Shown one piece after another: positions 9,619 through 31,472 of a DNA stretch of 64,000 bases. How positions within the stretch are numbered: position 1 is the first letter of the stretch; each line of letters starts with the position of its first letter. The position numbers and the translations under genes were made by a program. Below the pieces are notes generated by a model, which saw nothing but the letters and a program-made list of their open reading frames with translations, was not told the origin of the DNA and made no database searches. The DNA is from Planctomycetota bacterium. GTDB taxonomy: Bacteria; Planctomycetota; UBA1135; GCA-002686595. The DNA is taken from the NCBI GenBank assembly GCA_028823395.1, contig JAPKBO010000001.1, positions 4,920 to 68,919 on the forward strand. The letters run 5' to 3'.

Positions 9619-9698
9619 TGGGTGCAGGATCGGCTTTCGGTGCACTGTGATCAAGCACCCGCCGGGAGAGGAATTGTGATTATGGGCAAGGACTCGGG

Positions 9699-10688
9699 TC
9701 AGTCCAGCGCCACGTCGCCCATCAGGCGAAAAAAAGGAGTCATGTCCACTTCGTGCTCCATGACCACAGCGGACTTCCACTGCCAGTATTCCGGATCCTC
9801 AATGGGCCTCTGGAGGAGACTCGCCTCCACGGCCCGGGACAATTCGTCGGGGCGCTCGGGGGACAAGGGTGCTGGCCTCCCATCAACCTGCATAATCAGC
9901 CAGCGGTCGCCTTCGCGTACGGGCCCTCCCAAGCCTCCGACAGGAGTCTCGAAAGCAACCAGCGCCAGCGGCGTTCGGCCCCGCACGATCGGGGGGACGC
10001 GCCCACCGTCGGCACTTGACTCGTCCACACTCCAGGTCCGGGCGAGGTGCTCAAAAGGCTCCCCGGCAGCGAGTAGGGCCTGGACCTCATCCACCTGCGC
10101 ACGGGTCTGGAGCACAATTACGCGCACCTGGGCATGCGGGGTACACAGGAGCCACCCACGCACCACCCGCTCGGCTAAGAGATCCAATTCAGCCTGATAT
10201 TGGATGCGCTGCTTGTAGGGGCCCGGATTCAGGCCCAGCCTCTGCCGCAGAAATTCATCGCTGCTCAGGTCCCCAGCCCCGCTGGCCGCCACCTCTTGAT
10301 CCAAGCGATCCAAGGCCTCCTGTCGAGCCGCCTGACCCTGTGCCTCAGTCACGCTCACGCCCAGCCTAAGAGCCTCGAGCACGATCAGCCGCTCGAGAAT
10401 CAGCTCGTCGAGTAGAGCGCGCACCCCCGGGCTGTCCCGGTGCAGCCAGGACTGAAGCAGCTCGGCGGTGGTCAGGGGTTGGCCCGCGATACGAGCCACG
10501 AACGGAGCCTGCGTAGCCTCTGCTGTGGACCCGGCGGCCTCTCCGGGTGCCACCAACGCACCGGCCCGTGGACCAGCGCAAGCGCTCAGCCCCAAGCCCA
10601 GAAGCAGCAGGCCTGTGGGTGCGTGGATAACAGGCACGCGCGCACTCAGCGGTAGTACACGCGGCGGGTCACAGCGACTCCCCGACAT
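9699..10688 (-). CDS. SurA/PrsA-like lipoprotein (degenerate parvulin-type PPIase or chaperone)
   Basis: Lipobox LGLGLSAC after a basic N-terminus. SurA-like helical N-domain (LLDELILERLIVLEALRLGV), then a parvulin-like stretch (VRVIVLQTRAQVDEVQALLAAGEPFEHLARTWSVDESSADGG). Its 5' end overlaps the upstream gene by 43 nt, so the start is uncertain. Confidence 0.55.
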   Translation of the reverse strand: MSGSRCDPPRVLPLSARVPVIHAPTGLLLLGLGLSACAGPRAGALVAPGEAAGSTAEATQAPFVARIAGQPLTTAELLQSWLHRDSPGVRALLDELILERLIVLEALRLGVSVTEAQGQAARQEALDRLDQEVAASGAGDLSSDEFLRQRLGLNPGPYKQRIQYQAELDLLAERVVRGWLLCTPHAQVRVIVLQTRAQVDEVQALLAAGEPFEHLARTWSVDESSADGGRVPPIVRGRTPLALVAFETPVGGLGGPVREGDRWLIMQVDGRPAPLSPERPDELSRAVEASLLQRPIEDPEYWQWKSAVVMEHEVDMTPFFRLMGDVALD

Positions 10689-12205
10689 GCATGACAGGGC
10701 ACGATCTGCACCGAGGAGGCCTGCTTACTTCCGCCCCCACCTGAATAGATCATCTCCAGCGCGCCACGGCCGCCGCAAGTAGAGCAAGCCTTGAGGTAGG
10801 GGTGATCGCGCAGCTCGTAGTCTCCGGCGAATTCCACGTAGAAGGCCTTAATCCAATTGGCGCGCTTGCTGAGGGTGAAGGCGTCCCAGAAAACCTGGAA
10901 CTCGTCCTCTTGGGCGGCCTGAGCCTGTGCACGGCGGGCATTGCGCTGGTTCTTCAGGAAGCGCTGGATTTTGTCCTCTAGTGCCGCCCGCTCCTTGTCC
11001 TTGTCGGTCATGGCATCGCGCTGGGCGGAGGTATCCTCGGTGCCCGCAAGGGCCTTGTCTTCCCCCAGCATCCAGGTCCCCTCACCATAGGTGGCGTTGT
11101 TGTAGCGCAGCATGTGGCGCGAGACCCAGTGGGCCACGATCTGATCTTCACTCGCCTCAGAGTTGTACTGTTCCTGGACGTCCGCCAGCACAGCCTCTCG
11201 AATAGCCTCGCCAAGCCCCTCTTCCGCAAAAGCCACGGCACCGACGTAGTTGAGACTGCCGGCCGCCTGCCGGGTCAGTCGGGAGAGCCAGTAACCCCAG
11301 CGCCTGCGCACAAAATCGGTCACTTCCTCATCGCGCGCGAGCATGATCTGATTTTCCTTCGCCTTGACCTCAAGCACTAGAGGGCTGGCCGGGAACACGA
11401 GGGCGAAACCCGCCAGCCGTTCCAGCGCCGTCTCGTACTGTCCCTTCTTGCGTAGCACGTCGACGCTCCGCAGATAGTCAATCTGGGCCTGCTGCGCGGC
11501 CTTGACCTGAGCTAAGGCTACGGAGTTGGCCAGCTCGGGATGCTCCAAGTTCTCATCCAACGCCACCGCTGCCTGGAAGTGTTCCAGGGCATGCTGGAAA
11601 TCGAGAAACTGCTCACAGGTGCGTGCCATATTGATCTGGCCCTGGAGGTCCGTCTCCACCAACTCAGCCGAGTGGCGCGCATACAGCTCCTCGCGGCTGT
11701 AGATATCTAGAGCCGGAGCCTGGCCCCCCTTGGAAATACTCTGCACTCGGCGCTTGGGCACGAGCTGCAGGTTGCCATCCACCTGAACGACGAAGTCCGT
11801 GCCCTCCCGCGAGAGGATGACGCCCACGACCTCGTGGCCGTCCACCAAGATCAGGCGCTCCACATCCACCATCAATTCGTCCGTGGCCACGTCCACGTAG
11901 CCCAGCTCTTCGCGCAACTCCTGCTGCTGGCTGGGATCCAGTGCGGTCCAGACAACGCTCGCCACTCCACCGTGGGACAAAAGCGTAAAGCGGAAGCCGT
12001 CCGGGTCGTGATCTAGAATGTGGCCCCACCGGATCTGCCCACTGCGCAGCTTCAACATCAGCGCAGGTTGCAGCTCCAGTTCGGGCGCCTCCTGCGAGGA
12101 CGGCTCAGGCGTAAGGCCGGGGTCCTGTTCAGGAGACTGGAGCGCCGAGGCACTGGCACAGAGGAAAAGGGAAAGGCTCAGGAACTTGAGGGTGTCGATC
12201 ATCAC
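10646..12205 (-). CDS. secreted TPR-like protein with C-terminal DnaJ-type zinc finger (CxxCxGxG ... CxxCxG)
   Basis: Signal peptide MMIDTLKFLSLSLFLCASASA. Helical repeat region. C-terminus CSTCGGRGALE...CHACRGVAV. GTG (12205) or ATG (12202) start, overlapping the upstream pseudopilin stop. Confidence 0.7.
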   Translation of the reverse strand: MMIDTLKFLSLSLFLCASASALQSPEQDPGLTPEPSSQEAPELELQPALMLKLRSGQIRWGHILDHDPDGFRFTLLSHGGVASVVWTALDPSQQQELREELGYVDVATDELMVDVERLILVDGHEVVGVILSREGTDFVVQVDGNLQLVPKRRVQSISKGGQAPALDIYSREELYARHSAELVETDLQGQINMARTCEQFLDFQHALEHFQAAVALDENLEHPELANSVALAQVKAAQQAQIDYLRSVDVLRKKGQYETALERLAGFALVFPASPLVLEVKAKENQIMLARDEEVTDFVRRRWGYWLSRLTRQAAGSLNYVGAVAFAEEGLGEAIREAVLADVQEQYNSEASEDQIVAHWVSRHMLRYNNATYGEGTWMLGEDKALAGTEDTSAQRDAMTDKDKERAALEDKIQRFLKNQRNARRAQAQAAQEDEFQVFWDAFTLSKRANWIKAFYVEFAGDYELRDHPYLKACSTCGGRGALEMIYSGGGGSKQASSVQIVPCHACRGVAVTRRVYYR

Positions 12206-12726
12206 GGTCGGTCTGGGGTAGAAGACGTAGCGGATTGGTCCTCCTCACCCGGAGCCATCTCCTGGGGCGGGGGGAATGAACGGGCTCGGATGAAGCGCCG
12301 GCGCAGTCGCTCTCCAAAGGGTACTTCACGTAGCAACAGGGTGGTGAACTTGCGCGCGCGTTGCACTCCGGCGGCCTCCCAGGAGACGTTCACGTCCACA
12401 GCGAACTCGTCCGGGTCGTCGGGGTTGACCCGCGCCAGGGCCGAGTAGATCACGCCGGTGGCGCCGGGCACGGGGCGATCGACGATCACACGCGGGTCCC
12501 CCACGCTGCCGTCTTCCTCTAAAGGAAAGAGTGACTCCTCTAGGTCTGCCACCACCGCCTCGATGGCCGTGGCCGCAGCCGTGCGCAAGGCAGCGGTACG
12601 GGTCAGGGCGGCGCCAAAGGTGAACAGGCCCAGGAGCGAGGTCATGGCCATGACCAGCAATCCCATCGCGAGGACGACCTCCAGGATGGTGAAGCCCGCC
12701 TGCGTCCGGGTGCGTGAAGGGCTCAT
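12202..12726 (-). CDS. minor pseudopilin, GspI-like (prepilin-type N-terminal methylation domain)
   Basis: Class III signal RTQAG|FTILEVVLAMGLLVMAM with Glu at +5. ATGA overlap with the upstream gene. Confidence 0.75.
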   Translation of the reverse strand: MSPSRTRTQAGFTILEVVLAMGLLVMAMTSLLGLFTFGAALTRTAALRTAAATAIEAVVADLEESLFPLEEDGSVGDPRVIVDRPVPGATGVIYSALARVNPDDPDEFAVDVNVSWEAAGVQRARKFTTLLLREVPFGERLRRRFIRARSFPPPQEMAPGEEDQSATSSTPDRP

Positions 12727-13937
12727 CGGCCACTCCCTAGCCGGGTCGAGGACGCAGGACGCCCCAGGTTCCAGTCGTCACTGTGCATAGCCACGGGCAC
12801 CTCAACGACGACGGTCTCACCGAAGTGTACGCGTGCGCCAATATCGTGGGGCATCGCGGCGGATCCACGGGCGGCACGTTTCACACTCACGCGGTCGCCG
12901 CGCAAGCCCTGTACCTCCATCCACTCCCCGTCGATGAGAATGTGGCGTCCTTTCCGATAGGGCAGGGCGGAACCGTCGCTCACCTCGAATGAGGCCGTTT
13001 GTTTCTCTAGGGGTTCGAGGAGGGTCGGACGCCTCCGAAGATCCGCAGGGCGCTCGAACTCAAGCTCCACGCGCACTCGGCGCGGAAGCAGGGGGCTGCC
13101 CGACACCGCCGGCATCCCCGCGCCGGGCTTGTTCCAGGGGTGCGCCTGCCAGTCCGGACAGAGGGGATCGTCGCTGGATCGTCCCCAGGCATCCCAGGAA
13201 GCGCTGGCGTGTTCCAACCCGGCGCCCAGTTCCCACCCATCCCAAATAATGCTCGTTTGTGTGGCGAACTGCAGGCCCAACCAAAGCAGCCCTCCGGACA
13301 CTTCCTCCAGCCCCCCCGCCTTGGGACGGCCCGAGGAGGAGAAGAAGTCGGACCTAAAGAAGGTGCCGACAGAGCCCGGGGCCAAAAGGGCCTCGCCACG
13401 CATGAGTAGACCCTGCCCACGGGAAAGGGCATCGGTCCCCACGGGCACCACGGCCCAGGCCACCTCCATGAGCCCACTCTGTATGGCCGGCGTGGGACGC
13501 TGGTCCTCGGGAATGAGAGTCTCTACATCGACGCCTAAACTCGCGGCTTGAGCCACCAGCGCCGGGTCCACACCACGCGCCGACAAACGAACGACGTCCG
13601 CCATGGATACCGATCGCACAAGGCGCAAACGCGGCCAGACGCGGTCCACGCGCCCGTCCTGGTCCACATCGAAATTGACCCAATCCACGAGGAAGTCCCC
13701 TTGGGATCCACTGTGTAGAGAACGCAGATCTTCAGCGATGAGCTCCGCAGTCGCAGCCCCGCGCTCAACGATGAGACGTTGATCCTCACCCCGGGTCCAC
13801 ATGTCCAAGGTCGTGTCGAGCAGACGGAACAGAGCCACCATCAAGATCGCGGCCAGACCAGCCGCCACCATCAGCTCCACCATCGTGAAGCCTCGACGTG
13901 CGATGGAACTCTTCGGATTCAGCCGGGTGCCTCTCAT
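12723..13937 (-). CDS. minor pseudopilin, GspJ-like, with a C-terminal repeat module shared with the giant pseudopilin
   Basis: ARRG|FTMVELMVAAGLAAILMVALF with Glu at +5. Start trimmed to MRGTRL (13937), which gives an ATGA overlap with the giant gene's stop. Module ILIDGEWMEVQGLRGDRVSVKRAARGSAAMPHDIGARV lies at 12828-12947. Confidence 0.7.
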   Translation of the reverse strand: MRGTRLNPKSSIARRGFTMVELMVAAGLAAILMVALFRLLDTTLDMWTRGEDQRLIVERGAATAELIAEDLRSLHSGSQGDFLVDWVNFDVDQDGRVDRVWPRLRLVRSVSMADVVRLSARGVDPALVAQAASLGVDVETLIPEDQRPTPAIQSGLMEVAWAVVPVGTDALSRGQGLLMRGEALLAPGSVGTFFRSDFFSSSGRPKAGGLEEVSGGLLWLGLQFATQTSIIWDGWELGAGLEHASASWDAWGRSSDDPLCPDWQAHPWNKPGAGMPAVSGSPLLPRRVRVELEFERPADLRRRPTLLEPLEKQTASFEVSDGSALPYRKGRHILIDGEWMEVQGLRGDRVSVKRAARGSAAMPHDIGARVHFGETVVVEVPVAMHSDDWNLGRPASSTRLGSGR

Positions 13938-16900
13938 TGATCCACACTCCTCAGCACCTGACCCGGTGCCTGATAGCCCACACCCAGACGCTTCAGACGC
14001 GGCGTCTCTTTCCAACCGTGTGAGAGCCCGGCCGTGGGGTCGAAAGCACCCGGGTCGTAGCGCACGAAAACGCGCCAGTCGATGCGCTGGGATTGCACGC
14101 CCACCGGCAGGGCCGCGTCACCGTCTCGCCCCTGGAACAGAAGCTGCAAGCCGCTCTCCTCTTCGGGGTCCGCGTCCCAGGGAACGGATGGGTCCGTGCG
14201 TTGCAAGACACCGATGTGGCACTGGCCATGGGTGGCCGGCTCAGAATCCCAGAAGGATTCCGACCACCAAGCGCCGGGCTGCTCCAACTCAAAACCGAAG
14301 TACGACATTTCGGGAGCGTCGGCCTGCTCAGCCCAACGATCCCAGTAGCGGAACGGGAACTGGATCACGGTGGAGCGCAATGCGTGGGCGCTCGGCACGG
14401 TGCCGTAGCGACCCCTAAACAGGCCCGCCCCGCCACCGTCATCGCTACTCGATCTAGAGTCAGGATCATCGGCGTCGTAGCCGGAGCGCGGCATCTCCAG
14501 CGAACCCCGGCGCTGCCGTGTGAAGTGGATCAACTCGTCACCGATCAGGACCGTACCGGAGGTGCCGAAACCGGTGGCGCTCTCAATGGGCAAGGTGGAG
14601 TCGGAGGGGCCGATCCCTCCCGTCAGCGAACTCACAGCCCAACCTTCCATCAAAGTCACCAATTCGGTCGGTTGATGGGGCTGGGGATCTGTACCCAAGA
14701 GGCCGCGACCATCGGGGGCGACGACAATGTCGCCGGTTTCCACGTCGCGCTCGGTGTAAGCCAGGATCTCGTTGCCGATCCGCAAGAGCCCCCCATCGCT
14801 GTCCAATGCTCCGAGCACCCCCTGCGCGCCACCCCAGCGGCCGCCAGGAATCACGAACCCCGTCGGGGCCACCCGCATCGTCCCACTGCTCTCATCCATG
14901 GCCTCGGCCAGGATCATCTGCGCGCCCGCACTGTGCATGGCGGGGCTAGTGCCAGGCAAGCCCATCAGGAATTGCTGGGAGCCAAATGCCACCTCGTCCA
15001 CAACGGCCGAGGGCACTTCGCCTCCTTGGGCATCAAAAGTTGAGCCCACGCTGACCGACGAAACGATACGCGGCCTCTCTCCAGAAGGGAACTTACTGAT
15101 ACGTGGCAGGAGGCGGGAGTCCGTTGTCGTCGTGCCAAGCGTGACCATGGCAACCGACTCCGGGCAAGGCTTGTCGAAAGCCACATAGATGTGCTGCACG
15201 TTGATCTCCGAGTGATTGGCCTCGAAGCTCTCCGGGGAACTGGGGAGGGCCACCTGGTCTCCGCCCGGATCGAAGTCCCAACCGTAGCCGGTGTACTCGG
15301 CCGCAGGAAGGTGAGCACGCTCAACGACCATGGGCCATCCCAGGTGGTCCGGATTGGCGCCCGATACAAAGACTGCATCACCCGCACCGGGGCGCCCTCC
15401 ATCAACGCCCCTATCAAACAAGTGGAAGACCGGCAGAACCTGAGTTCCGGCGGGATGGTCATGTGTGTGGGTTCCCAAAACACCGCGGAATTGGAAGACC
15501 GAGGAGACCGCTCGGGATAGATAGAACTCATCCAGCTCGGGTTCTCCACGCAGGGGATCCCAGTCCGACCCTACGGACGGAACCGGGCCTGAAGAAACCA
15601 CCGGAGGACCTGTAGCAGGTGCGTAAGTGCCGCCGCCACCGCCACCGCCGCCACCACCACCGCCGCCGCCCGGTCCACCACCGCCATTGCCATCAACGGT
15701 GCCACGCAAGTCGTTCATGACTCCGCCGGAGGTCAGGGTGACGTAGACGGCAAGCAGGGCCTGGTTGCGGTCGCGCACGAGCTGGCCCTGGGCCGTGGCC
15801 AAGGTGTCGTAGCGCACCCACTCGGTGAACTCCGCTGCGTCCGGCCGCGTGAGTTGGACGAACTCCGAGTTGTCGAGGGCGGGCAGATACGTGAGGTCAT
15901 CGGCACCTGGACAGGGAAGGGAAATAGGTACGCAATAGCAGCCCATGTCCAGCATGCCCTGCACCAGGTCACCCTCTGCGTTGGTGGTGCCCTCCCAGTC
16001 CACGACGTACACGCGTACGCCACCGGCAAACCCGGTGGGGTCCTGGTTCCCATAGTTGGGCAGTTCATTGGCCACGACATCCCCCCGGGCCGTGACATCG
16101 AGGACCGTCCCGGTATAGCCCGAGTAGCGGATGATCTCCAACCCGCCCAAGGGCGCGTTGGGAGGGATGCCCGAGGTACCCGTCTCGTCAAAGGCCCAGC
16201 CTTGCTGAACGAGGGCGGCATAGCCCCCGGTGGGATTGAAGGCTGTCATCACATCGGACTCCCCTGGATCTCCGGTGGGGTCGTCCGCCAGAGCCAGTAT
16301 CAGGCCACTCATGTTGGTGGCCTCGTACCCGTCGCCAAAGTCGAAGAAGCCGCCCAGGATGGGATCGGGCCCCGTCCCCGTGGAAGCATCCACGCCGATA
16401 ACACGCGCCACCCTGAACGGGCCGATGGCCTCAGGTAGTTGCGCGTTGCCTGCGGGCAGATTGGAGGCCAGGGGCGCAGAGTAGCCGTAGAGGGACACGC
16501 TCGCGCCGAGCGGGTGATCGGTGGTGATGGCTCCCAAATTGGCGGGCAGGCCTTCCACGCTCCAGCGCGTACGGGCCAGGCGTCCACCGTGCCCCGCGTT
16601 GGGGCCCACTTCTACGTGGGTGGCTTCAAGCCCTCCGGAGGAGAGCACGTACTCCACCAGCTCGTTCCCTACTCGCACCACCCCCTGGGTGGGGAATCCT
16701 TCGGTGTCATCCAGAGCAAGGAACCCCATACCTTGGCCGGCCCCACCGCTCAGCTTCGACATTCCCGGGCGTCGAACGCCCGACGCTGAGCCATTGACCA
16801 TCAGGCCCAGTTGATCCGGGCGTGTACCAAGCACCTCCAAGGAGACGTGGCTCCAGGTGTCCACCGGGAAGCCCGGACCATCTCCTTCCGCTAGCGCAAA

Positions 16901-19066: not shown

Positions 19067-20112
19067 TCGACCGTCCCGTACACGTTGACTCGAATGGTCT
19101 CCACACCGCCCTCGCCAAAGTCGAGGCCCAGCTCTACCGGCCGCAGATGAACCGTTGGATCCAATCCACCTCCGGCCATGAACTCCACGGAGGCGGGAGT
19201 TTGGGGAGTAAAATCCACCCCCAGGGGCAAAACGCCTCGCTCGCTGCCCACCACGACCGCCAGGATCAGCCTGTCGAGAACTCCCGAGGGAAGGGTGGTT
19301 CCACCGCCCACGATCAAGGGCGCCTCCACGTCCCAGACCGGCACGTCGGAGGCCGTTGAGGCCAGCGGAACCCCATTGACCAGAAGTCGCAGAGTGCGTT
19401 TGTCGTAGACGCATCGCACATGATTCCATTGGTCCGGCCGTAGAGCCGTGGCACTTGTCTGAACACCGACCCTTGCGCCACGCCGAGGCTGGCCCAGTGC
19501 GTCCACCTCACGCCGGTACAGGGTGGCCGAGAGGCCTCCACCGGAAGTGGTCTGCAACAGGAAGGAGTCGCCGATTTCGATCAGCTTGGCCCCCACCATG
19601 CGCTCGGGCTTGTAGCTGATCTCCAGACTGAACCCCTCGGTCAAGTCGAATGCGGGGTCGTGTTGCACGGGGAACTCGGCCCGCGCGCCGGCGGGCGCAC
19701 CATCGAATGAGAGTCCACGCCCCATGAACCCGTCGTCGTCCAACAGTGAGCCACTCCCCAAGAATACACCGTCGATTCCATCCGAACCGCTAAGGGTCTC
19801 GTCCTCGAAATGCCAAGTACCCACGACACGCATGCCCACGGTCAGGATTTCGCCTGTCTCGTGATTGAGGATCACGCGAGAAGGAGCCCCCAGAGCCACG
19901 GCTGTGTTGTGCGCGGTACGCAACAGGCTCGTGACCTGACCCAGAGCGGCGCGCCGACCGGGATCCAGGGTCGCGAAAGCCCCCAATCCCATGCCCATCA
20001 TCACAGCGATCAGCCCCATCACAAGCATCAGCTCGATCAGGGTCATGCCCGCGTTGAAGCGGACCGGACGCGTGGGGTTAGTCCCGCTCAATCTCAAAGT
20101 TGGCGATGTCAT
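19063..20112 (-). CDS. modular pseudopilin (GspH position) carrying a LamG/concanavalin-A-like domain
   Basis: VRFNAG|MTLIELMLVMGLIAVMM with Glu at +5. C-terminal WNHVRCVYDKRTLRLLVNGVPLAS is typical of Laminin_G_3-type jelly rolls. ATG at 20112 overlaps gspG by 35 nt (in-frame TTG alternatives exist). ATGA overlap with the giant gene. Confidence 0.7.
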   Translation of the reverse strand: MTSPTLRLSGTNPTRPVRFNAGMTLIELMLVMGLIAVMMGMGLGAFATLDPGRRAALGQVTSLLRTAHNTAVALGAPSRVILNHETGEILTVGMRVVGTWHFEDETLSGSDGIDGVFLGSGSLLDDDGFMGRGLSFDGAPAGARAEFPVQHDPAFDLTEGFSLEISYKPERMVGAKLIEIGDSFLLQTTSGGGLSATLYRREVDALGQPRRGARVGVQTSATALRPDQWNHVRCVYDKRTLRLLVNGVPLASTASDVPVWDVEAPLIVGGGTTLPSGVLDRLILAVVVGSERGVLPLGVDFTPQTPASVEFMAGGGLDPTVHLRPVELGLDFGEGGVETIRVNVYGTVE

Positions 20113-20779
20113 CTGCAGTACCGAAAAATCCGTCGGGTCCGGCGGAGATGATCTGGAAGCTGGATTTGCGATGAGGGTCTCCCGTCTTGCGGGAGACGCC
20201 TCCCTTGACCGGGCCCTCAATATCCAGACCCACTTCGTCATAGGTGAGGTAGTGAATCTCCTTCTCGTAGTCCCGGCGGTGGATGTACGCGAGGGGATTT
20301 CCCCAAACGTCGATCAACTCGAAGGCATCGGGGCTACTGAAGCGCGTCAGGCTGGTCTTCGTGCTATCTCCATCGGTGTTGCCGAGAGCATCCTCACCTA
20401 TCTCCGCGGCCTGCCAAGGACGGCCCTGGCGCCACAGGCTGATGACGAGCATTTCCACACCCATGTTGATGCGGTTGGGCTTGGGGTCGAGGCTGGCCGG
20501 GAAGGTCGAGGGCGGGTAGCGCTGGAACTCGTTGTTGTACTCCTCCACCAGCCCACCGATGGTCTGAATCAGGGCCTTGGTATTGCCCACCTCCACGCTG
20601 ATCTGGGCAGCGCGCACGGAGCGCACCAGGAAGGTCACCAGGATGGACAGAATCATGAGCACCGCCAGGAGCTCAATCAGGGTGAAGCCACCTTGGGTTC
20701 CGTCCCGCTCAGGAGCGGTCGTGGAAGACGCCCGAGAGGTCCGGAGGAGTAGCGGGCGAAGGGAGTTGGAGATTCGCAT
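20078..20779 (-). CDS. gspG: type II secretion major pseudopilin GspG-like, with an internal insertion
   Basis: TQGG|FTLIELLAVLMILSILVTFLVRSV...KALIQTIGGLVEEYNNEFQRYPPS and C-terminal FQIISAGPDGFFGTADDIANF match the GspG pattern. Confidence 0.8.
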   Translation of the reverse strand: MRISNSLRPLLLRTSRASSTTAPERDGTQGGFTLIELLAVLMILSILVTFLVRSVRAAQISVEVGNTKALIQTIGGLVEEYNNEFQRYPPSTFPASLDPKPNRINMGVEMLVISLWRQGRPWQAAEIGEDALGNTDGDSTKTSLTRFSSPDAFELIDVWGNPLAYIHRRDYEKEIHYLTYDEVGLDIEGPVKGGVSRKTGDPHRKSSFQIISAGPDGFFGTADDIANFEIERD

Positions 20780-20794
20780 GGTCGAGTTTAAATC

Positions 20795-23488
20795 CTAAAG
20801 CCGTCGCCGGATGACCCCTACGTAGTTCACCGAAACCGAGGCACGCCTGCCGGCGCGGCCCTCTACGAAGATTCCGAAGCGCAATGGCTGACTTGAACGG
20901 CCCAGAGTCGGCAGTGCCAAGTTCTCGATCACGGGAACGTCATCGACCCACAGGGTAACCGTGGTATCCGAGGAGGTCTCTCCGCGCTTCTCGATCCCCA
21001 CGCGCATGGGCTCCCCCACGTTCCATTGGGCGGTATACAGATCTTGCGCCGCCGCATCCAGCTCACCCTTCTTGGTCAGCGTCGCGCGCACGGCACCGTC
21101 CCAGTGACGCACCAATTCCACAGCGGCATGGGTTCGGATGTCCCCGGTGCGACCTTCAGTTTCGCGTGCGATAAAGATGCCCACGGTCACGTCCCGCGAA
21201 TCGGGGTGAACGGTGAGCTCGGCCTCGAGTGAAAGCAGGCGGTCTGCGGGAAGCTCGCGGTAGAGGCGGGTCCGACTCTCCTTGCTGAGCTGCCCCTCGA
21301 TCCACACGGCTCCGTCGCGCAGGCGCACCTCCGCGCCGTAGCCTTGGTCGTAGGTCCAGCCGTTGCCCACACGTCCCACGCGGTCGAAACGGTCGCGCCA
21401 GAACTCCTTGCTCTCGTGGTCGCGGATGCGAGCGCTCTGGGACTCGGCGTATTGACTGGCCGCATCGCCCTCGAGCTCGTTACGGCGGATGTCCACCAGT
21501 TCGGCAAAGCTAGCCTGGGCCTGCCCCGAGTCGCCGCTGAGGTACTGCCACCAGGCCATCCCGTTCCGGGCCGAGGCCAGGTCGGGATCGAGGCCCAGTG
21601 CTACGCCGAAAGAGGTCTCGGCCTTGCTCAACTCACCCAGCACCAGGAAGTTCAATCCACGCCGGGCATGCACGGCCGGGCGTGCGGTATCGATACTCAG
21701 GGCCCGCTCGAAGTAGCGCTCGGCCGAATCCGGATCCCCCCCCTCGCTGGCCAGGGCGCCCATAGCGATCAGCGCGTCGGGGAAATCCAATTCCTGATCG
21801 AGGGCAGCGCGGAAGCTCGCCATGGCTTCGTCCTCTTCATCGCGCTGCGTCTGCAGACGCCCGCGCTGATAGAGAGTCCAGGCGTCTTCGGGGTTCGACG
21901 CGTAGGCCATCTCGATGTAGGTCCAGGCTTCCTCCGGATGGCCCGTAATCTCGGCCACCCAACTCAAGCTTCGCCAGCACAGCCAAGCACGGAAGGGATC
22001 AACCGCTGCGGCCTGGCGTAGGGAGCTCACGGCGCCCCCATCATCCTCGGCCTGCAAGGCGGCCAACCCACGGGCGAAGAGCAGATCGAAGCTGGCATCC
22101 GGCCCGTCGCTGACATTCTCCTCCAGCACATCACCCTCACCCAAGAGGACCGACGCGGCCAAGACTCCCGCAGGGCCAAGGTCCGCTTCGGGGTCCGCAC
22201 TGGCGCCGCGCTCGAACGCATCTCTCGCCGCCCGTACCTCACCGCGAGCCATCAGCACACGACCAAAATCCGTGCGGATACCCACCCGTTCGGCGCGCAG
22301 GTCGTTGCCCGTGGGCTCCCGCTTCTGGGCCTCGTTCAGGTGCTCAAAGGCTTGATCGTATTGACCGGCATCCAGGAGAAACCGTCCGTACAGCCAACGC
22401 ACAAGCCAGTCCGTTCGCGAACGGCGCAGGCCCTCGTCAAAGGCCTGCTGGGCCGGGCCGCGCATGCGGAAGCGGGCGTACAGGTCTCCTAGTCGAGCCC
22501 ACGGCTCGGGCTCCGTATGCAAATTGCCTTCGGTCAGGCTCGCGTAGACGTCCAAGGCAGCCTGGAAATCAAAACCCAGCTCATGACACCGGGCCAAACC
22601 CAGGTGCGGGCGCACGTCGGTGGGCTGTAACCCGACGCACAGGCGGTACAGGTCCTCGGCCACTTCCAGGGCACGCGACGTCTCGTTACGCAGCCCGAGG
22701 CACTCCCCTGCAAAACGCATGGCCCCGTCAAAGTCGCCCGGGCGCAAGTCAGAACCGAAGGCGGCACGGCCCAGCTCGACTCTGTTCGCCGATGTATCAG
22801 CAAACCCTAAATCTTGAACGCGCTCGGCCTCGTAGGCCACAGCTTGCTGGCCGGGGAAGCGCTCCTTGCCAGTGCTGGGATCAATCTCGAGAAACAAAAC
22901 GGCCTCGCCACTTCCCTTCAGCCCAAAGCGGTCGCGATTCGCGATGTGGCCGAACTTCAGGTTGGCTACCACGATCCAATCGTAGAGTTTCTTGCGCGCT
23001 TCAATGCGTGCTAGGCGTTCGTCGACAGTGAGGTCCGCGTCCGACGCACCACTCACCGTTATGATGTCCTGCGAGTCTCCACTTCCGATCGATGCGGGCT
23101 CCATTGACGAGACATCAAACAGGCCTGGCGCCGATCTGGCAGAAAGCGGCGTGCGCAGATGCTCGCCCATGTGCTTGGCGGCAGGGCCGTAAGCGCTTGG
23201 AGGGGCGAGGGCAGGCAGGGGCTCGATGGGTGGTGAAATTAACTCCAGGAGCGGCAGGGGGGTGGTGTCCCGAGGTGGCGAGAAGAGGTCACGCTGAAGG
23301 GTCCCCTGACGACTCTCAGCCGGTAAGGCCAAATCGCTATCGGGGACGGCGGCCCGCGAGTAGCTCTTGGCCGTTCCAGCGCTCCCTCCTCGAAGGCCCA
23401 CAGTCCCATCAGACATCAAACCGTAAGCGCTCCAGGCGAGGAGCCCCGCTACGGCCAGGAAGACACCGGTCTCTTTTTTCATTTCCAT
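20795..23488 (-). CDS. membrane-anchored TPR-repeat protein with C-terminal beta-jelly-roll (DUF1080/LamG-like) domain
   Basis: Start trimmed to MEMKKETGVFLAVAGLLAWSAYGLM (TM), 16 nt after the upstream stop. Multiple TPR-like helices. The last about 190 aa (20798-21367) read GNGWTYDQGYGAEVRLRDGAVWIEG...LWVDDVPV... Confidence 0.7.
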   Translation of the reverse strand: MEMKKETGVFLAVAGLLAWSAYGLMSDGTVGLRGGSAGTAKSYSRAAVPDSDLALPAESRQGTLQRDLFSPPRDTTPLPLLELISPPIEPLPALAPPSAYGPAAKHMGEHLRTPLSARSAPGLFDVSSMEPASIGSGDSQDIITVSGASDADLTVDERLARIEARKKLYDWIVVANLKFGHIANRDRFGLKGSGEAVLFLEIDPSTGKERFPGQQAVAYEAERVQDLGFADTSANRVELGRAAFGSDLRPGDFDGAMRFAGECLGLRNETSRALEVAEDLYRLCVGLQPTDVRPHLGLARCHELGFDFQAALDVYASLTEGNLHTEPEPWARLGDLYARFRMRGPAQQAFDEGLRRSRTDWLVRWLYGRFLLDAGQYDQAFEHLNEAQKREPTGNDLRAERVGIRTDFGRVLMARGEVRAARDAFERGASADPEADLGPAGVLAASVLLGEGDVLEENVSDGPDASFDLLFARGLAALQAEDDGGAVSSLRQAAAVDPFRAWLCWRSLSWVAEITGHPEEAWTYIEMAYASNPEDAWTLYQRGRLQTQRDEEDEAMASFRAALDQELDFPDALIAMGALASEGGDPDSAERYFERALSIDTARPAVHARRGLNFLVLGELSKAETSFGVALGLDPDLASARNGMAWWQYLSGDSGQAQASFAELVDIRRNELEGDAASQYAESQSARIRDHESKEFWRDRFDRVGRVGNGWTYDQGYGAEVRLRDGAVWIEGQLSKESRTRLYRELPADRLLSLEAELTVHPDSRDVTVGIFIARETEGRTGDIRTHAAVELVRHWDGAVRATLTKKGELDAAAQDLYTAQWNVGEPMRVGIEKRGETSSDTTVTLWVDDVPVIENLALPTLGRSSQPLRFGIFVEGRAGRRASVSVNYVGVIRRRL

Positions 23489-23504
23489 GATGATGGTCCC
23501 GAGG

Positions 23505-24299
23505 CTACTGCCCGGCCTCCTCGCCACCCAGGTTGTCCTTGATGCGCACGACCTGATACTCGATATCCGCTTTGACGGATCCGATCTTGTTGCGCTCGTT
23601 CTTGACGTTGAACTGACCGATGGCCAACGGACCACCGCTCCCATCTTCCGCCGCAGGCTCTTGGCTGGCCACGATCAAGTTGGTGACCGACTCGGCGCTG
23701 GACAAAAGAGTAAAGGTGACGCTCGTACGCTCCACGGCGCCCAATCCACTGCGGGATCCAAAGCCCGGATCGAGCTTCACAGCAATACGACTGATGCGAT
23801 CGACGCCAGCATCGGCGGCGAGTCGAGCCACGCGCTCTAAGAGGTCTAAGGCCTCAAGGCGACGCTCGATCTCCGGCAGACTGTTGGTCTCCAACATTTC
23901 AATACCCCATCCGTCCGGGTAGTTCATACGTCGACGGCTGGCCAGAAGGTTCAGGTCCTCTCGCACTTCCTCCACGCGAGTGAAGTAGATCCCGCTCGCT
24001 GAACCGGTACCCGCCTCCACGACAAAGCCGGGGCGCGGCCGAAATGCGGTGGCTCCGGTCATGACGCTGATCGCCTCGCGCAGAGCGTCGTTCTCTTCGG
24101 CCGCAGCATCACGATGGGTGGTGGAGTAACGCTCGGCCTTGAGGTCTCCACGGTTCTTGTTGCGCAGACGCTTGGCCGTCCCCAAGTCCTCACCGTAGAG
24201 ACTCTGCACGACGAAGAGTCCGATCACAAAGACGAGGAAGCCGCCGCCAAGAGTGACAAGGAAACGTTTGTTCTCTTGCCAGTAGTCATTCATGTCCAT
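23505..24299 (-). CDS. PilO/GspM-like bitopic assembly protein
   Basis: Short cytoplasmic N-terminus, one TM (FLVTLGGGFLVFVIGLFVV), a coiled region and an about 150-aa periplasmic domain. Sits 2 nt downstream of the PilM-PilN fusion gene. Call is by position and topology. Confidence 0.5.
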   Translation of the reverse strand: MDMNDYWQENKRFLVTLGGGFLVFVIGLFVVQSLYGEDLGTAKRLRNKNRGDLKAERYSTTHRDAAAEENDALREAISVMTGATAFRPRPGFVVEAGTGSASGIYFTRVEEVREDLNLLASRRRMNYPDGWGIEMLETNSLPEIERRLEALDLLERVARLAADAGVDRISRIAVKLDPGFGSRSGLGAVERTSVTFTLLSSAESVTNLIVASQEPAAEDGSGGPLAIGQFNVKNERNKIGSVKADIEYQVVRIKDNLGGEEAGQ

Positions 24300-24301
24300 G
24301 G

Positions 24302-25999
24302 CTAGTATTCCCCCCCTTCATCATCACCCGCGCCGTCATCCGCGTCGGGCGGCGGCGCACCGAACAGGCAAAGGTCCAATGAAAACTGGTCCCGATCGAT
24401 GGACTCCTTCATGCGCCCCCCACTCGATCCGTCCCCCACCAGGGCTTCGCGCAGGGTGCGCGTCATCTCCTGGAACTGGCGACTGGGAGAGTCGGTACCG
24501 GGCCGTATCATCCCGCGCACCATGAGCATCGGGCGCTCGGCGTTGCGCTCGACTCCCAGTTCGGGGTCGAAGGTCCACTCGCTGCTCAGCTCGGAGACCC
24601 AGAAATCGCCGGGAAGGGATTTGTCGAGCTTGCTCATCGCACGCGCGCCCTGCTCGCCCAAACCCGCCACCCACTGGAGCTCCGAGGCGAGCACACGCAG
24701 GGATCCATTTTCCTCGATCAGCTGCTCGGCCTCGCGATGGATTCGGGTGTCCCTAGAGAGGCGGGACTGTAGCCCTGCGTTCTCGCTATTGACCTTGTCG
24801 AGTTCATCGGCGAGGTGCACCGTCTTGAAGCCCAGGTAGCACACAGCCAGGAGGGCGGCGGCAATAAGCCAGACCGTCTCTCCCCAAAAAGCTCGCTTCT
24901 TGGCGAGGCTCGCCGGCAAGACCTCCAGACTGTAAGCCTCGGAGTCGGAGCCCATGGTGGCCAAGCCAAGCGCCACCACCGCCTGCAACTTGAACTCTTC
25001 AAGCAGATCCGCACTGGCTGCGTCCAGCTTCTCAGTCTCCACCATGCGGAAAGCATCGAAGAGTTCCACCGTCACACCCATACCGCCCGAGATGTACTGG
25101 GGCAAGCCGTCAAGAGCTGCGCCGCCACCGCAGAGCATCACGCGATCCACTTTCAGGCCGCTGATCTTGACCTGACTTTTGCAGAACAGGATGGCCGACT
25201 GAAGGAGAGAGAGAATCTGGCCCGCGGCGCCCATGATGCTGCGGCTGGCCTTCTCGTGGTTGGGAGTCGGGTGCGAGGCACCGGGACGCAAGCTGGCATA
25301 TTTCCGCTTGAGCATCTCAGCCTGCGCCGGGCCCACGTTGAAGCGCTGCGCCAGGGCCTGGTCGAAAAGTCGACTGCCCCCGGAGAGATTGCGCGCAAAC
25401 AGAAGATCCGGTCCCCGGGCAATAACCACGTCGATGTTGTCGTGCCCGATGTTGGCCAGGAGAACGGTCTCGTCTTCCACCACGCCGTAGTGCGTCCAGG
25501 CGTTGTGCAACGCGATCGCGCTGGGGCTGAAGCTATCCAGGTTCCCGCCCGTCAGCTCTAAGCCCTCGAGGTGGTCGTCCAAGAGGCCTTCACGTGCCAT
25601 GGCCAGCAGGACCACGTCCTCCCCCTCGACCTCCGGGAGTTCGGGCAAGAGGTTGAAGTCACTCGCCACATCGGTACCGGATTGATCGCCAATCTCGGAC
25701 ACCTCGAACCGCATCAGGTTGCGCAGCTGCCAGTCGGGCACCCGCGGCACGCGGGTATAGCGCACGTTGACATCGCGGCCCGTCAGGCCCACTCGCGCCG
25801 CCACGGGCTTAAAGCCCTGGGCCAGTTCCTCCCACCCGCTCAGCAGCCAGCCGGTGTCCGCTTCACTCGCGCTTGAGCCAAGGGAAGGGTTGGCACGAGC
25901 ATGGAAGTTCGTGACGTGAAAGGTATTTCCCTTGTACTGTCCGCACAGTGCAATGGCCGAACCAGCACCGACGTCAATGCCTGTTGAGGTGCGCGCCAT
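24302..25999 (-). CDS. PilM-PilN fusion (GspL-like): actin-like ATPase-fold domain, TM, and periplasmic coiled coil
   Basis: N-terminus TGIDVGAGSAIAL...LLANIGHDNIDVVIA...VMLCGGGAALDGL is PilM-type actin fold. This is followed by TM VWLIAAALLAVCYLGF, a coiled coil (LDKVNSENAGLQSRLSRD) and a PilN-like tail. Confidence 0.8.
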   Translation of the reverse strand: MARTSTGIDVGAGSAIALCGQYKGNTFHVTNFHARANPSLGSSASEADTGWLLSGWEELAQGFKPVAARVGLTGRDVNVRYTRVPRVPDWQLRNLMRFEVSEIGDQSGTDVASDFNLLPELPEVEGEDVVLLAMAREGLLDDHLEGLELTGGNLDSFSPSAIALHNAWTHYGVVEDETVLLANIGHDNIDVVIARGPDLLFARNLSGGSRLFDQALAQRFNVGPAQAEMLKRKYASLRPGASHPTPNHEKASRSIMGAAGQILSLLQSAILFCKSQVKISGLKVDRVMLCGGGAALDGLPQYISGGMGVTVELFDAFRMVETEKLDAASADLLEEFKLQAVVALGLATMGSDSEAYSLEVLPASLAKKRAFWGETVWLIAAALLAVCYLGFKTVHLADELDKVNSENAGLQSRLSRDTRIHREAEQLIEENGSLRVLASELQWVAGLGEQGARAMSKLDKSLPGDFWVSELSSEWTFDPELGVERNAERPMLMVRGMIRPGTDSPSRQFQEMTRTLREALVGDGSSGGRMKESIDRDQFSLDLCLFGAPPPDADDGAGDDEGGEY

Positions 26000-28116
26000 T
26001 ACTTATTGTCTCCGCTGCCTGGGGTCACGTGATACTCCTCCTGGAGATAGGTGCGCATGCGCGCCACCAACCCCTGGGCCTCACGACTCTCGAGAGTCTG
26101 AAGAATGGACTGCAAACGCCGCACCTCCCGCCGGTCCAGGTCGGTCTCAAGCGCCGCTAGATCCGCGTCCACCCGCGAAACTATGGCCTGCGCCCCACTC
26201 TCGACCTCCGAGCCTGCGTAACGGCCGGCGATGTCACTCGCATGATCGCGGCACTCCCGATACAGGCCGGCCAGACGGAAGAATTTCGCACGCTCGATCT
26301 GGCTCTCCAAGGCGCGTGTCTCCTCGAACCCGGTGCGCACGAGATTGGCGCGCTGAGACTCAGCGCGCTGTACCAAGTGGTCTTCGAAGGGGTACGTGTC
26401 GAGGAGCTGCTGCCAAAGGACAAGACACTCGCCCAGACGGCCCGCACGCTCCGCACCTTCCGCATCCGCAGCCAGGTTGATAGCAGCCGTGCGCTCCTCT
26501 TGGAAGCGCACCTGGATCAGGGGTCTGGCGCCGCCGGGCAACTCAACGGTCACCTGGAATGCTCCTCCCTTCCTGAGGCCGCGCACGTTACAGGGCTCGC
26601 CCAGAGCAACGCGCAGTAAGTTGACGCCCTTGCCGATCACGAGGTCTGTCACGCCTGCGGTCTGAAAGTCCTCCTGCTGCAGGGAGTAACCGCCCTCCCC
26701 CATGGTCGCCAGACCACCGTCCAATGAACTCGGCTCGGCAGTCCAGACAAGGAGCAAACCCGAATCACCGCCCGGATCAAGCCGCACTCCATTCGCCTCT
26801 TCCGTGAGTTGCAGGTCGAGGGCGGCACGCGCCGTGGCGCCTGCAGAACGAAGGTGCATCCCCGAAAGCAGGGTCGCATCCACCTTGAACAGGTTAAGGA
26901 GGCGTCCCGCTTCGAAGAAACGATACTCGTCAAGCACCGCCCGGGGTGCGCCGCCGGCACTCACTACGACGCTGACATCATCGACTGAGGCGCGCCCCGC
27001 GCTGTCCGACGCCTCATCTGCCTCACCGCTCCCGCTAGCCGCGGCAGCCAGCAAGAGCCGTGCCCGGTCGTAGCCCTGGGGCACGGTCAATGAGAAGGTC
27101 CTTTCGGCGAATGCGGTGCTCTCGGAGATTGCATCGCCGAAGCTCGCACAAGGGGTGGGATCTTGAACTTGCGTGCCGCGGGCCAATTCGATGCCCAAGC
27201 GGAGCTGCGCGGATCCAGACACGCGCACCTGGGCAGTGGCCATGAGCTGCTGACTATGGCGCACATCGACCCACGGGGAAGCGTGTACCGCACTCTCCCC
27301 CGCAACCAGAGAAACGGACAAGCCGAACTCGCCCGAATAAGCGGCGCGAGCGGAACGACCGAAAGCCGCTTCGCCCTCGTCTAGAGCTTCCCAATCACTA
27401 GAACCCTCGAACGAGGAACCGTCTTCCAACAGGTTGCCCACGACGGTGGGTACGGGCCGGCCGCCAGAGCTCTCCTCGCCATCGCGACTCATGACCCACC
27501 AGACGCCAACCGATCCAGCGGCGAGGACGACGAGGACCAGAGCTCCGAGGGGGGATTTCTTTTTTGATCGGGCCAGGTTCTCGGCGCTGATCGTGTGCTG
27601 TTCGCTTTCAGCCGGCGCGAGAGGAGGCGTAGCCACGGACGGCGACATCGGCGTGGGAACCGGCGTGGGAACCGGCTTAGCCCGAACCGGAGGAGCCTTA
27701 GCCGGAACGCTTCCGGGCATGGGCGGTGCGGGTTCCTCGAGAGTCAGCTCTTCCGAAGCACCCGAGTCCCCCTCAAGTACGATGTCGTCCATTCCTCCGG
27801 AACCATGGGACTGCTCCACATCAGCTCGCGAGAGGGTGCAGTGAATCGCACCGAAGGTCACCCGCTGACCGACATCGAGACGGGCCTCCAAGATCTTGGC
27901 GCTGCCGATGCGCGTGCCGTTCGTGCTCCCAAGGTCGCGCACGCTAACGCCTTGATCGTCCACGCTCAGGCGCGCGTGTGCGCCCGACACGGACGCGTCG
28001 GCCAACTGTAGGGTGGAATCCGGCTTGCGGCCTACAGTGAATCCCTCCCCTTCAATGGGGAATGACTGACCCTCTAGGGCGCCGTTTTCGACGCGCAGGG
28101 AATACCGGTGGAGCAT
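25999..28116 (-). CDS. FHA-domain transmembrane protein with a large periplasmic domain; first gene of the pseudopilus operon
   Basis: FHA domain at 27832-28116: FTVGRKPDSTLQLADASVSGAHARLSVDDQGVSVRDLGSTNGTRI. Pro-rich linker and TM (LGALVLVVLAAGSVGVWWVM). Periplasmic NLLEDGSSFEGSSDWEAL resembles a CBM4_9-type beta-sandwich. Start trimmed to MLHRYSL (28116). Its stop overlaps the PilM ATG by 1 nt. Confidence 0.8.
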   Translation of the reverse strand: MLHRYSLRVENGALEGQSFPIEGEGFTVGRKPDSTLQLADASVSGAHARLSVDDQGVSVRDLGSTNGTRIGSAKILEARLDVGQRVTFGAIHCTLSRADVEQSHGSGGMDDIVLEGDSGASEELTLEEPAPPMPGSVPAKAPPVRAKPVPTPVPTPMSPSVATPPLAPAESEQHTISAENLARSKKKSPLGALVLVVLAAGSVGVWWVMSRDGEESSGGRPVPTVVGNLLEDGSSFEGSSDWEALDEGEAAFGRSARAAYSGEFGLSVSLVAGESAVHASPWVDVRHSQQLMATAQVRVSGSAQLRLGIELARGTQVQDPTPCASFGDAISESTAFAERTFSLTVPQGYDRARLLLAAAASGSGEADEASDSAGRASVDDVSVVVSAGGAPRAVLDEYRFFEAGRLLNLFKVDATLLSGMHLRSAGATARAALDLQLTEEANGVRLDPGGDSGLLLVWTAEPSSLDGGLATMGEGGYSLQQEDFQTAGVTDLVIGKGVNLLRVALGEPCNVRGLRKGGAFQVTVELPGGARPLIQVRFQEERTAAINLAADAEGAERAGRLGECLVLWQQLLDTYPFEDHLVQRAESQRANLVRTGFEETRALESQIERAKFFRLAGLYRECRDHASDIAGRYAGSEVESGAQAIVSRVDADLAALETDLDRREVRRLQSILQTLESREAQGLVARMRTYLQEEYHVTPGSGDNK

Positions 28117-31466: not shown

Positions 31467-31472
31467 TTAGGC

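Follow-up and report, generated by a model that had tools for sequence, protein, structure and literature searches.

The window, the 64-kb stretch of Planctomycetota contig JAPKBO010000001.1 analysed here, carries eleven tightly packed open reading frames (ORFs) on its minus strand at 9699-28116, which appear to encode the filament and scaffold parts of a type IV filament machine (Table 1). In order, they specify a membrane protein with an FHA domain, a PilM-PilN fusion (PilMN), a PilO-like protein, a TPR protein, five pseudopilins arranged as G, H, K, J and I, a protein with a zinc-finger motif and a peptidyl-prolyl isomerase (PPIase). Spacing is minimal throughout: the FHA and PilMN genes overlap by 1 nt (TAATG), the PilMN and PilO-like genes are 2 nt apart, the PilO-like and TPR genes 16 nt, and the TPR and G genes 15 nt. 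At the H/K, K/J and J/I junctions an ATGA is common to both genes, the I and zinc-finger genes share GTGATG, and the zinc-finger and PPIase genes overlap by 43 nt. A G/H overlap of 35 nt holds only if H starts at the ATG at 20112, and other H starts are possible. These abutting or overlapping stop and start codons fit co-translation. The gene map bears out the eleven packed same-strand genes, and the junctions between them, that had been described in an original prediction made from the letters of the window. A promoter and terminator consensus scan of 8700-28600 gave no excess over shuffled sequences and is uninformative on the transcription unit, and neither an Rfam scan at gathering thresholds nor a tRNA scan returned anything in the whole window.

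Table 1. Genes of the operon, in reading order, and the kinase gene upstream of it. The slash in leader sequences marks the predicted processing site.
Product	Position in window	Strand	Length	Features
FHA-TM-periplasmic protein	25999..28116	-	705 aa	Pfam Yop-YscD_cpl, FHA
PilM-PilN fusion, GspL-like architecture	24302..25999	-	565 aa	PilM_2
Bitopic PilO/GspM-like protein	23505..24299	-	264 aa	Position, topology, faint ortholog matches
Exported TPR protein	20795..23488	-	897 aa	Many TPR families
G, GspG-type major pseudopilin	20078..20779	-	233 aa	N_methyl; leader G/FTLIEL
H, GspH/FimT-like LamG pilin	19063..20112	-	~349 aa, start codon uncertain	Leader G/MTLIEL
K, giant GspK/PilX-type tip pseudopilin	13934..19066	-	1,710 aa	Leader G/FALMAV
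J, GspJ/PilW-like minor pseudopilin	12723..13937	-	404 aa	Leader G/FTMVEL
I, GspI/PilV-like minor pseudopilin	12202..12726	-	174 aa	Leader G/FTILEV
Exported zinc-finger-motif protein	10646..12202	-	518 aa	CxxCxGxG...CxxCxG; signal-peptide-like N-terminus
PpiC-type PPIase, probable lipoprotein	9699..10688	-	329 aa	Rotamase; LGLGLSAC
Ser/Thr protein kinase, upstream, outside the operon proper	31473..32549	-		Pkinase 2.1e-44

Conservation across the Planctomycetota

A synteny scan of one genome per species, searched with an alignment of H, located 57 loci. Apart from two probably misbinned records, these come from Planctomycetota metagenome-assembled genomes and from Saltatorellus ferox Poly30, in which the operon lies at 2.68-2.71 Mb. 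All eleven genes are found in 36 of the 57 loci, with order and strand identical in 36/36, so that a survey of relatives finds the sequence FHA-PilMN-PilO-TPR-G-H-K-J-I-ZnF-PPIase kept in every complete locus. The other 21 have an incomplete gene set, and many of these are short or end before the full 10-kb flank.

The conservation extends well beyond close relatives. An exhaustive HMMER search with PilMN returned 204 cluster representatives below 1e-30, and members at 26-30% PilMN identity retain a core of (FHA)-PilMN-PilO-like-(small transmembrane protein)-TPR-G-H(LamG)-giant K-J; these distant core-bearing members are Planctomycetota wherever a name exists. Because conservation is strict in 36/36 loci and the core is kept at 26-30% PilMN identity, we argue that the genes form one functional unit. 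By this comparative evidence the operon is a real, old and selected unit, in which a GspG-type subunit, a core H/I/J/K set, a GspL-like fusion, an FHA protein with a transmembrane (TM) segment, a TPR protein and two folding-factor-like proteins are, as judged from gene content, inherited together.

The bracketed small TM protein, of 121-142 aa, is encoded between the PilO-like and TPR genes in distant lineages (locus L064, 2948-3313; locus L065, 12723-13151). The window's clade is without this small gene and its TPR protein is longer by about that length, so a fusion of the two is possible; no sequence similarity was detected between the small TM protein of the distant lineages and the TPR protein of the window.

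The pseudopilins and the giant K subunit

The leaders of the five pseudopilins were surveyed in 42-57 orthologs per gene, Glu+5 being counted only where a leader was recognised. It occurs in 53/54 leaders of G, 46/46 of H, 39/41 of J and 41/41 of I, and in 0/36 of K, in which position 5 is A, T or V in place of Glu. The claim of five class III leaders, four with Glu+5 and one, that of K, without it, is thus upheld across the orthologs, and the N-terminal motifs also match when set against N_methyl and pseudopilin profile models: G, H, J and I each match N_methyl or TIGR02532 (Pfam/NCBIfam).

Beyond their leaders, these four proteins resemble known pseudopilins to differing degrees (values in brackets after family names are E-values). 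G matches N_methyl (1.7e-5) and TIGR01710 GspG (6.1e-8; 32.8 bits against a cut-off of 88.85), and a profile of its orthologs can be aligned along the whole of E. coli GspG (GspG aa 3-140; hhalign probability 99.4%); it matches models of the GspG/ComGC type and has no match to Pilin (PF00114). H combines Laminin_G_3 (4.8e-8) and N_methyl (8e-4) with matches to GspH (6.3e-5) and also to XpsH, below curated cut-offs. J matches N_methyl (1.9e-5), and its orthologs (n=34) match Verru_Chthon cassette protein C (27/34, best 6e-6) and GspJ (16/34, best 2.4e-6), all below cut-offs, along with weak HpsC and HpsB matches; in the PDB the J-family profile finds only an N-terminal pilin helix. I matches XpsI over aa 9-130 (4.7e-9) and Verru_Chthon cassette protein B (1.5e-6), again below cut-offs.

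K is the most unusual member of the set. A VNVNTAP motif at aa 365 marks the site of a weak T2SSK/GspK match (T2SSK 0.0035), and across the family (n=28) NCBIfam gives T2SS_GspK matches in 27/28 sequences (best 3.6e-11) and Verru_Chthon_A matches in 4/28 (best 0.0046), below cut-offs in both cases; no Hps model matches the family at E<=0.1. A LamG-like module occupies approximately aa 655-830. Further on, a run of fourteen glycines (Gly14; aa 1133-1146, window 15629-15670) lies within a longer Gly/Pro-rich linker and separates the N-terminal 1,130 residues from an all-beta C-terminal 560. AlphaFold2 models of aa 1-1120 (pLDDT 83.7) and aa 1150-1710 (pLDDT 82.9) predict a long pilin helix (aa 18-72) and, after it, numerous modules rich in beta structure. 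Compared with the PDB by Foldseek, neither model gave a match at E<=1e-3; the matches obtained were weak and fragmentary, resembling LamG/agrin-LG and tailspikes, and the K-family profile has no match in the PDB. Homologs number only 204, all 'hypothetical' Planctomycetota proteins of about 1,700 aa. Fifty-five PDB sequence matches of K were discarded as spurious, as all arise from the Gly14 run (single-chain antibody fragment and major histocompatibility complex linker chimeras).

K and J also have a repeated element in common. A unit of about 30 residues, built round 'h-h-I-G-x-E-h-h-x-Y ... G', is found at four places in K (aa 169, 797, 1428 and 1506) and at one in J, close to its C-terminus (aa 333), against 0.02 matches expected in shuffled K. 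Profile alignment places J aa 302-387 on K aa 139-221 (hhalign probability 50%) and on K aa 1472-1568 (25%). The unit is assignable to no known family, and may be a small beta domain, shared by the two proteins, through which J and K interact.

The inner-membrane module

The FHA protein has a cytoplasmic FHA domain (aa 8-98), a TM segment (aa 190-208; TM segments here and below are from a hydropathy scan) and about 500 periplasmic residues. It matches Yop-YscD_cpl (1.3e-15) and FHA (8.9e-14) in Pfam and, below threshold, the FHA regions of GltG, TagH and SctD in NCBIfam, and together with the TM scan these matches confirm that an FHA-TM protein opens the operon. Its periplasmic part has no PDB sequence match. 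A homologous first gene is present in 53 scanned loci; in distant locus L066 the FHA homolog carries two FHA domains (hhalign probability 100%), and an FHA homolog also lies beside P0274.

PilMN consists of an actin-like PilM domain, a TM segment (aa 376-394) and a periplasmic PilN-like tail. The fusion that had been proposed finds support in PilM_2 (1.8e-14) and in the solved PilM structures of M. xanthus (3.5e-15) and Thermus (5e-11), and the PilN-like tail is weakly detected: aa 358-475 align with E. coli HofN at an hhalign probability of 26.6% (E 7e-4). NF045709, the Amuc_1101 family, matches over aa 67-478 (1.9e-27; 96.3 bits against a cut-off of 650). PilMN has 697 homologs, essentially all from Planctomycetota.

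For the PilO-like protein, the PilO/GspM label, the weakest of the set, draws on position, conserved directly after PilMN, on topology, with a TM segment at aa 13-31, and on faint matches of the orthologs (n=38), which comprise T2SS_GspM_XpsM (4/38, best 1.2e-5), T2SSM_b (2/38, 0.01) and the Amuc_1100 family (1/38, 0.0065); the window protein has no Pfam, NCBIfam or PDB match. Its profile aligns weakly with the PilN part of the fusion (hhalign probability 19.9%).

TPR, zinc-finger and isomerase proteins

The TPR protein, which keeps its position even in distant loci, had been described as joining TPRs to a jelly-roll domain. The first part of that description is secure, with matches to many TPR families in Pfam (for example TPR_2, 1.5e-22); for the second there is only an alignment of aa 767-890 with the LamG domain of H at an hhalign probability of 32.9%, and the C-terminal domain may be LamG-like. 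The protein stands where PilP and PilQ would be expected. A disguised GspC/PilP or secretin was considered for it and for the FHA protein, and was dropped because hhalign found no relation of either to E. coli GspC, HofP, GspD, HofQ, GspL or GspM.

The two last genes encode proteins of the kind that might assist folding in the periplasm. The zinc-finger protein, present in 43 scanned loci, has only weak TPR matches in Pfam and no relative in the PDB apart from a designed TPR, and its predicted DnaJ-type motif is supported by C473, C476, C503 and C506, invariant in 42/42 aligned orthologs. The PPIase gene is found in 41 scanned loci and is invariably the last of the operon. Its product matches Rotamase (9.9e-5) and Rotamase_3 (3.7e-4); of the earlier label 'SurA-like lipoprotein', the PPIase and lipoprotein parts stand and SurA is better replaced by PpiC-type.

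Domain types found in operon members recur in two exported-looking proteins encoded on the plus strand of the window at 32600-36119. One is a 661-aa metallophosphoesterase with a strong Laminin_G_3 match (6e-24), and the other, of 490 aa, has a rotamase domain of the PpiC type.

Motor, exit and peptidase genes

The operon is encoded apart from an assembly ATPase, a platform protein, a secretin and a prepilin peptidase. In those window ORFs of at least 170 aa to which Pfam was applied, there was no T2SSE, T2SSF, secretin or Peptidase_A24 domain, and phmmer searches of every six-frame ORF of at least 60 aa in the window and the fetched loci found no match to E. coli GspC, GspD, GspE, GspF, GspL, GspM, GspO, HofB or HofC; the E. 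coli queries that did match were GspG and GspH, in the G and H genes. Within 10 kb, ATPase, platform and peptidase genes are missing from about 60 close loci, from four distant ones and from two loci that resemble MUL2 of Akkermansia muciniphila, and among relatives a secretin gene lies nearby in this MUL2-like branch only. The original prediction that GspE/PilB, GspF/PilC, a secretin and a prepilin peptidase are not encoded nearby therefore holds for the 64-kb window and for the roughly 60 related and four distant loci.

On the minus strand of the window at 50104-53078, the gene for a 312-aa ParA/MinD-like P-loop protein (AAA_31) overlaps that for a 703-aa protein with no Pfam match. The two may represent a chain-length-determinant/tyrosine-kinase pair that is divided between genes and serves the export of polysaccharide, and not a pilus protein of the TadZ type. 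The AAA_31 protein has no phmmer match to the T2SSE-family queries GspE and HofB.

Loci divided in this way are ordinary among type IV filaments. In P. aeruginosa, pilMNOPQ is separate from pilBCD, the Legionella lsp genes are spread over several loci, and PilD is shared by type IV pili (T4P) and type II secretion systems (T2SS). For the Saltatorellus clade itself, a canonical region with pilA, pilC, pilB, pilU-like, pilD, pilT-like, pilQ, pilO and pilM has been reported in S. ferox Poly30, Pla133 and Pla163, located in Poly30 at Poly30_38940-39150, and the same inventory of type IVa pilus (T4aP) genes gives 'no clear prediction' for pilV, pilW, pilX and pilY1 in all three strains (10.1101/817700). 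From locus-tag order we estimate that the operon of Poly30 lies far from this canonical T4aP region.

Relation to known systems

With the T2SS (Gsp/Xps/Xcp) the operon appears to have in common a GspG-type major subunit, minor subunits of the H, I, J and K types with a K that is without Glu5 and carries the (V/I)N(V/I)NTA motif, a layout like that of GspL (actin-like domain, TM, periplasmic domain) with a GspM-like partner, and reliance on a prepilin peptidase whose gene can lie elsewhere. It could be one half of a split T2SS, comprising the pseudopilus and the GspL/M pair, with its own GspD, GspE, GspF and possibly GspC at another locus; such a system would secrete folded exoproteins, and the giant K would be only an unusual piston tip. 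The GspG likeness of G over its full length speaks for this, as do the H/I/J/K set with a Glu5-less K, which is a T2SS signature, the GspL architecture of the fusion, the PilO-like orthologs that match GspM models and not PilO models, and the lack of a PilA-type pilin or PilT in the operon. We nevertheless regard a split T2SS as rather unlikely. GspC, D, E, F and O are not nearby and no GspC-like protein was found by hhalign; the genes run G-H-K-J-I rather than G-H-I-J-K; FHA, TPR, zinc-finger and PPIase genes are added; and every family score of the operon's proteins is under the curated cut-off. K is about five times the normal size, and its roughly 1,350 extra residues, with the LamG domain on H, point to ligand binding rather than to a compact piston tip. 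In addition, no orphan gspDEF is known from the clade, the one inventory published for it being of T4aP genes.

Comparison with the T4aP gene sets pilMNOPQ and fimU-pilVWXY1E of P. aeruginosa and M. xanthus gives a similarly mixed picture. PilM homology, a PilN-like tail, scaffold and pilin genes set apart from pilBCD, and a large tip adhesin, putative in the operon, that works with core minor pilins are features of both, whereas the operon has a fused PilM-PilN, a GspG-like polymerising subunit and its adhesin mass inside the K pilin, and is without PilP, PilQ (the TPR protein standing in their place), a PilA-type pilin, PilY1 or a nearby T2SSE-family protein. A functional parallel to K comes from cyanobacterial HpsA/PilX_EPS, a Glu5-less pilin of the PilX/GspK type that exceeds 1,280 aa through inserted beta-rich domains and is encoded in one locus with PilV-, PilW- and FimT-type partners; as a set, these prime a specialised filament whose motor is encoded at another locus (10.64898/2026.02.12.705559). 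More generally, distinct core minor-pilin sets of cyanobacteria prime distinct filaments on one T4P machine (10.64898/2026.02.12.705559). The resemblance to K is functional, the K family having matched only GspK and Verru_Chthon_A in NCBIfam, and the cyanobacterial sets, unlike the operon, come without their own PilM/N/O, G-type subunit, FHA or TPR proteins.

This parallel also lends itself to a different explanation, in which H, K, J and I are the core minor-pilin and tip-adhesin set of the clade's single T4a pilus, and PilMN, the PilO-like protein, the FHA and TPR proteins and G are paralogs that tune it. Such a pilus requires a priming set, yet pilV, pilW, pilX and pilY1 are the genes without clear prediction in the Poly30, Pla133 and Pla163 inventory; and in cyanobacteria one machine does take alternative minor-pilin sets, the giant HpsA-type PilX among them. 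The lack of a clear prediction, however, reflects ambiguous N_methyl matches and not absence of the genes, and a plain minor-pilin cassette would need neither a G subunit nor a PilM/N/O-type scaffold of its own, both of which are co-conserved in every complete locus and in distant lineages. We consider this explanation improbable.

The MUL2 locus of A. muciniphila (Amuc_1098-1102, with Amuc_1101 as Mul2B) resembles the operon in having a PilM-PilN-type fusion followed by a PilO-type protein beside pilin-like genes, and in MUL2-like loci, too, the ATPase is not adjacent. MUL2 differs in its secretin next to PilM and in the lack of the G-H-K-J-I set, the FHA protein and the TPR protein, and PilMN, which scores below the cut-off of the Amuc_1101 family, is not a member of it. 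In a different branch of PilM relatives, long PilM variants of 880 and 1,027 aa are encoded directly after a secretin gene, as in Amuc_1098-1101 (L068, 6861-13838; L070, 6461-14565); one of these loci has a downstream Ser/Thr kinase gene, and neither has an ATPase gene within 10 kb.

A MUL2-like function would be expected if the operon encoded a secretin-independent pseudopilus confined to the enlarged planctomycetal periplasm, where it would pull in or hold macromolecules, with the TPR protein replacing the PilP/PilQ connection. In keeping with this, the nearest named family of PilMN is that of Amuc_1101 (Mul2B), one PilO-like ortholog matches Amuc_1100, the PilP/PilQ slot is consistently held by the TPR protein, and lectin-type modules are present on H and K. 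Mucin accumulation in Akkermansia needs MUL genes, which code for pili and for complexes of the periplasm (PMC12418764, PMC13174399). The analogy does not itself predict independence from a secretin, however, because MUL2-like loci retain one beside PilM; the scores against the Amuc families are far under cut-off, and an uptake role for the clade is argued by analogy. A purely periplasmic pseudopilus seems to us very improbable.

The Verru_Chthon cassette (proteins A-D: TIGR02600, TIGR02598, TIGR02599 and TIGR02596), an uncharacterised prepilin-like cassette of Verrucomicrobia, supplies the best or near-best named matches for J (C), I (B), H (D, weak) and, in 4/28 sequences, K (A), and it too consists of four prepilin-like genes, one of which has a very large product. 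The window proteins fall short of its cut-offs (B, 28.5 bits against 51.4; C, 15.5 against 256.5; D, 14 against 70), and the cassette as defined is without PilMN, PilO-like, FHA, TPR, G or chaperone genes. The FHA protein has its own counterparts in SctD/YscD of the type III secretion system, TagH/Fha of the type VI secretion system and Myxococcus GltG, which likewise have an N-terminal cytoplasmic FHA domain, a single TM segment and a large periplasmic part and come first in a machine operon. Here the FHA domain alone matches, far under the cut-offs, and none of these proteins belongs to a type IV filament system.

Measured by profile scores and gene content, the operon is a member of none of the named families and resembles a T2SS pseudopilus or a T4P tip-priming system. 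The strangeness first ascribed to it has to be tempered in its parts: divided loci, a giant Glu5-less K (HpsA), a PilM-PilN fusion (MUL2) and FHA-TM proteins all have precedents. For the composition as a whole, literature searches in Planctomycetes or the Planctomycetes-Verrucomicrobia-Chlamydiae group found no paper that describes it, in line with the suggestion that no characterised system is built in this way.

A model for the operon

We favour, with moderate confidence, a reading that assigns to the operon one half, filament plus scaffold, of a specialised type IV filament machine with a lectin-like tip, served in trans by a motor, a prepilin peptidase and probably a secretin. The five leaders would be cleaved by a trans-encoded prepilin peptidase (PilD), and I, J and K, with H, would form a tip complex in the inner membrane under the Glu5-less 1,710-aa K as its cap. 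The PPIase and the zinc-finger protein would aid the folding of the lectin-like beta modules of K. PilMN, the PilO-like protein and the FHA protein would make up an inner-membrane alignment ring to which a PilB/GspE-type ATPase and a PilC/GspF platform, both encoded in trans, would dock in order to polymerise G beneath the tip. Across the periplasm the TPR protein would connect to a way out through the outer membrane, probably a secretin from another locus. The filament would display the LamG modules that H and K carry, and through them adhere to, or capture, a glycan or another ligand on a surface. Finally, the FHA domain could render assembly responsive to Ser/Thr-kinase signalling.

Capture of a ligand and the link to a kinase are the least secure steps of this model. 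The former is suggested by the LamG modules on H and K and by analogy with Akkermansia and with S. sanguinis, whose modular lectin-bearing pilins are reported to bind glycans (PMC9934059; 10.1101/2021.01.27.428410). Phospho-dependent control is suggested by the FHA domain and by a Ser/Thr kinase gene conserved a few genes upstream in several relatives, and this kinase is a possible partner of the FHA protein. In the window the kinase gene (31473-32549) heads a minus-strand block that precedes the operon at 28378-32549 and continues with genes for a CxxCxxCC protein (30606-31466), a Peptidase_MA-like protein (29425-30609) and RadC (28378-29061). In relatives, loci L002 and L003, the operon is likewise preceded by this block of kinase, CxxCxxCC, Peptidase_MA and RadC genes, but with an RsmE gene on the opposite strand interposed ahead of the FHA gene.

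Several points weigh against this model. The host genome was seen only as the 64-kb window, so any ATPase, platform and secretin that serve the operon lie beyond it. The clade's canonical T4aP locus has its own PilM, PilO and PilQ, and for one PilB and one PilC to serve two such complexes would be out of the ordinary, given that a GspL-type protein is normally partnered by a GspE of its own. Ligand binding by K is argued by analogy only, since its models match no solved structure significantly; the folds of the periplasmic part of the FHA protein and of the C-terminus of the TPR protein are putative; the PilO-like assignment is weak; and the kinase is tied to the FHA protein by gene neighbourhood only.

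A bolder possibility is that the operon represents a filament-machine class found throughout the Planctomycetota, with Ser/Thr-phosphorylation gating assembly at an FHA-containing ring, a TPR protein in place of the PilP-secretin connection, a lectin-like tip of about 180 kDa for capturing macromolecules and taking them up across the cell envelope, or for the fusion of cells and 'trunk' formation known from the Saltatorellus clade, and perhaps a non-canonical energy source or exit in place of a borrowed PilB/PilQ. We hold this to be a long shot.

Implications

Planctomycetota take up polysaccharides and bear fibres, and members of the Saltatorellus clade change shape, fuse and form pseudopod-like trunks, but the surface machines involved have hardly been assigned to genes. 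The operon described here is a strictly conserved and uncharacterised filament system of that clade, with a core common to several deep planctomycetal lineages, and S. ferox Poly30, which is in culture and sequenced, makes it accessible to genetics, tools for which are available in the phylum (PMC11958385). It adds a further, independent example of a K-type tip pilin of giant size, and its conservation of scaffold and filament genes without motor genes is relevant to motor sharing among filaments. It also provides a first FHA-TM protein within a PilM/N/O-type scaffold, which suggests kinase control of assembly, and brings putative dedicated periplasmic folding factors to the type IV filament field.

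Neighbouring genes

Directly after the PPIase gene lies a gene for ScpB (8887-9780, minus strand), which follows the operon in 18 scanned loci; its longest ORF overlaps the 3' end of the PPIase gene by 82 nt, and its true start is therefore probably later. Beyond it, at 6546-8846 on the same strand, is a gene for a single-TM protein of 766 aa that is very acidic and matches nothing in Pfam. On the plus strand at 36175-37772, a gene for a microcompartment vertex protein of the EutN/CcmL type adjoins a class II aldolase gene, a pair that we take to be reminiscent of the planctomycetal fucose/rhamnose microcompartment. In a 385-aa ORF on the minus strand at 45568-46725, a nickel superoxide dismutase domain covers residues 235-368 only; the protein thus carries a long extension at its N-terminus, unless translation begins well downstream of the TTG listed as its start.

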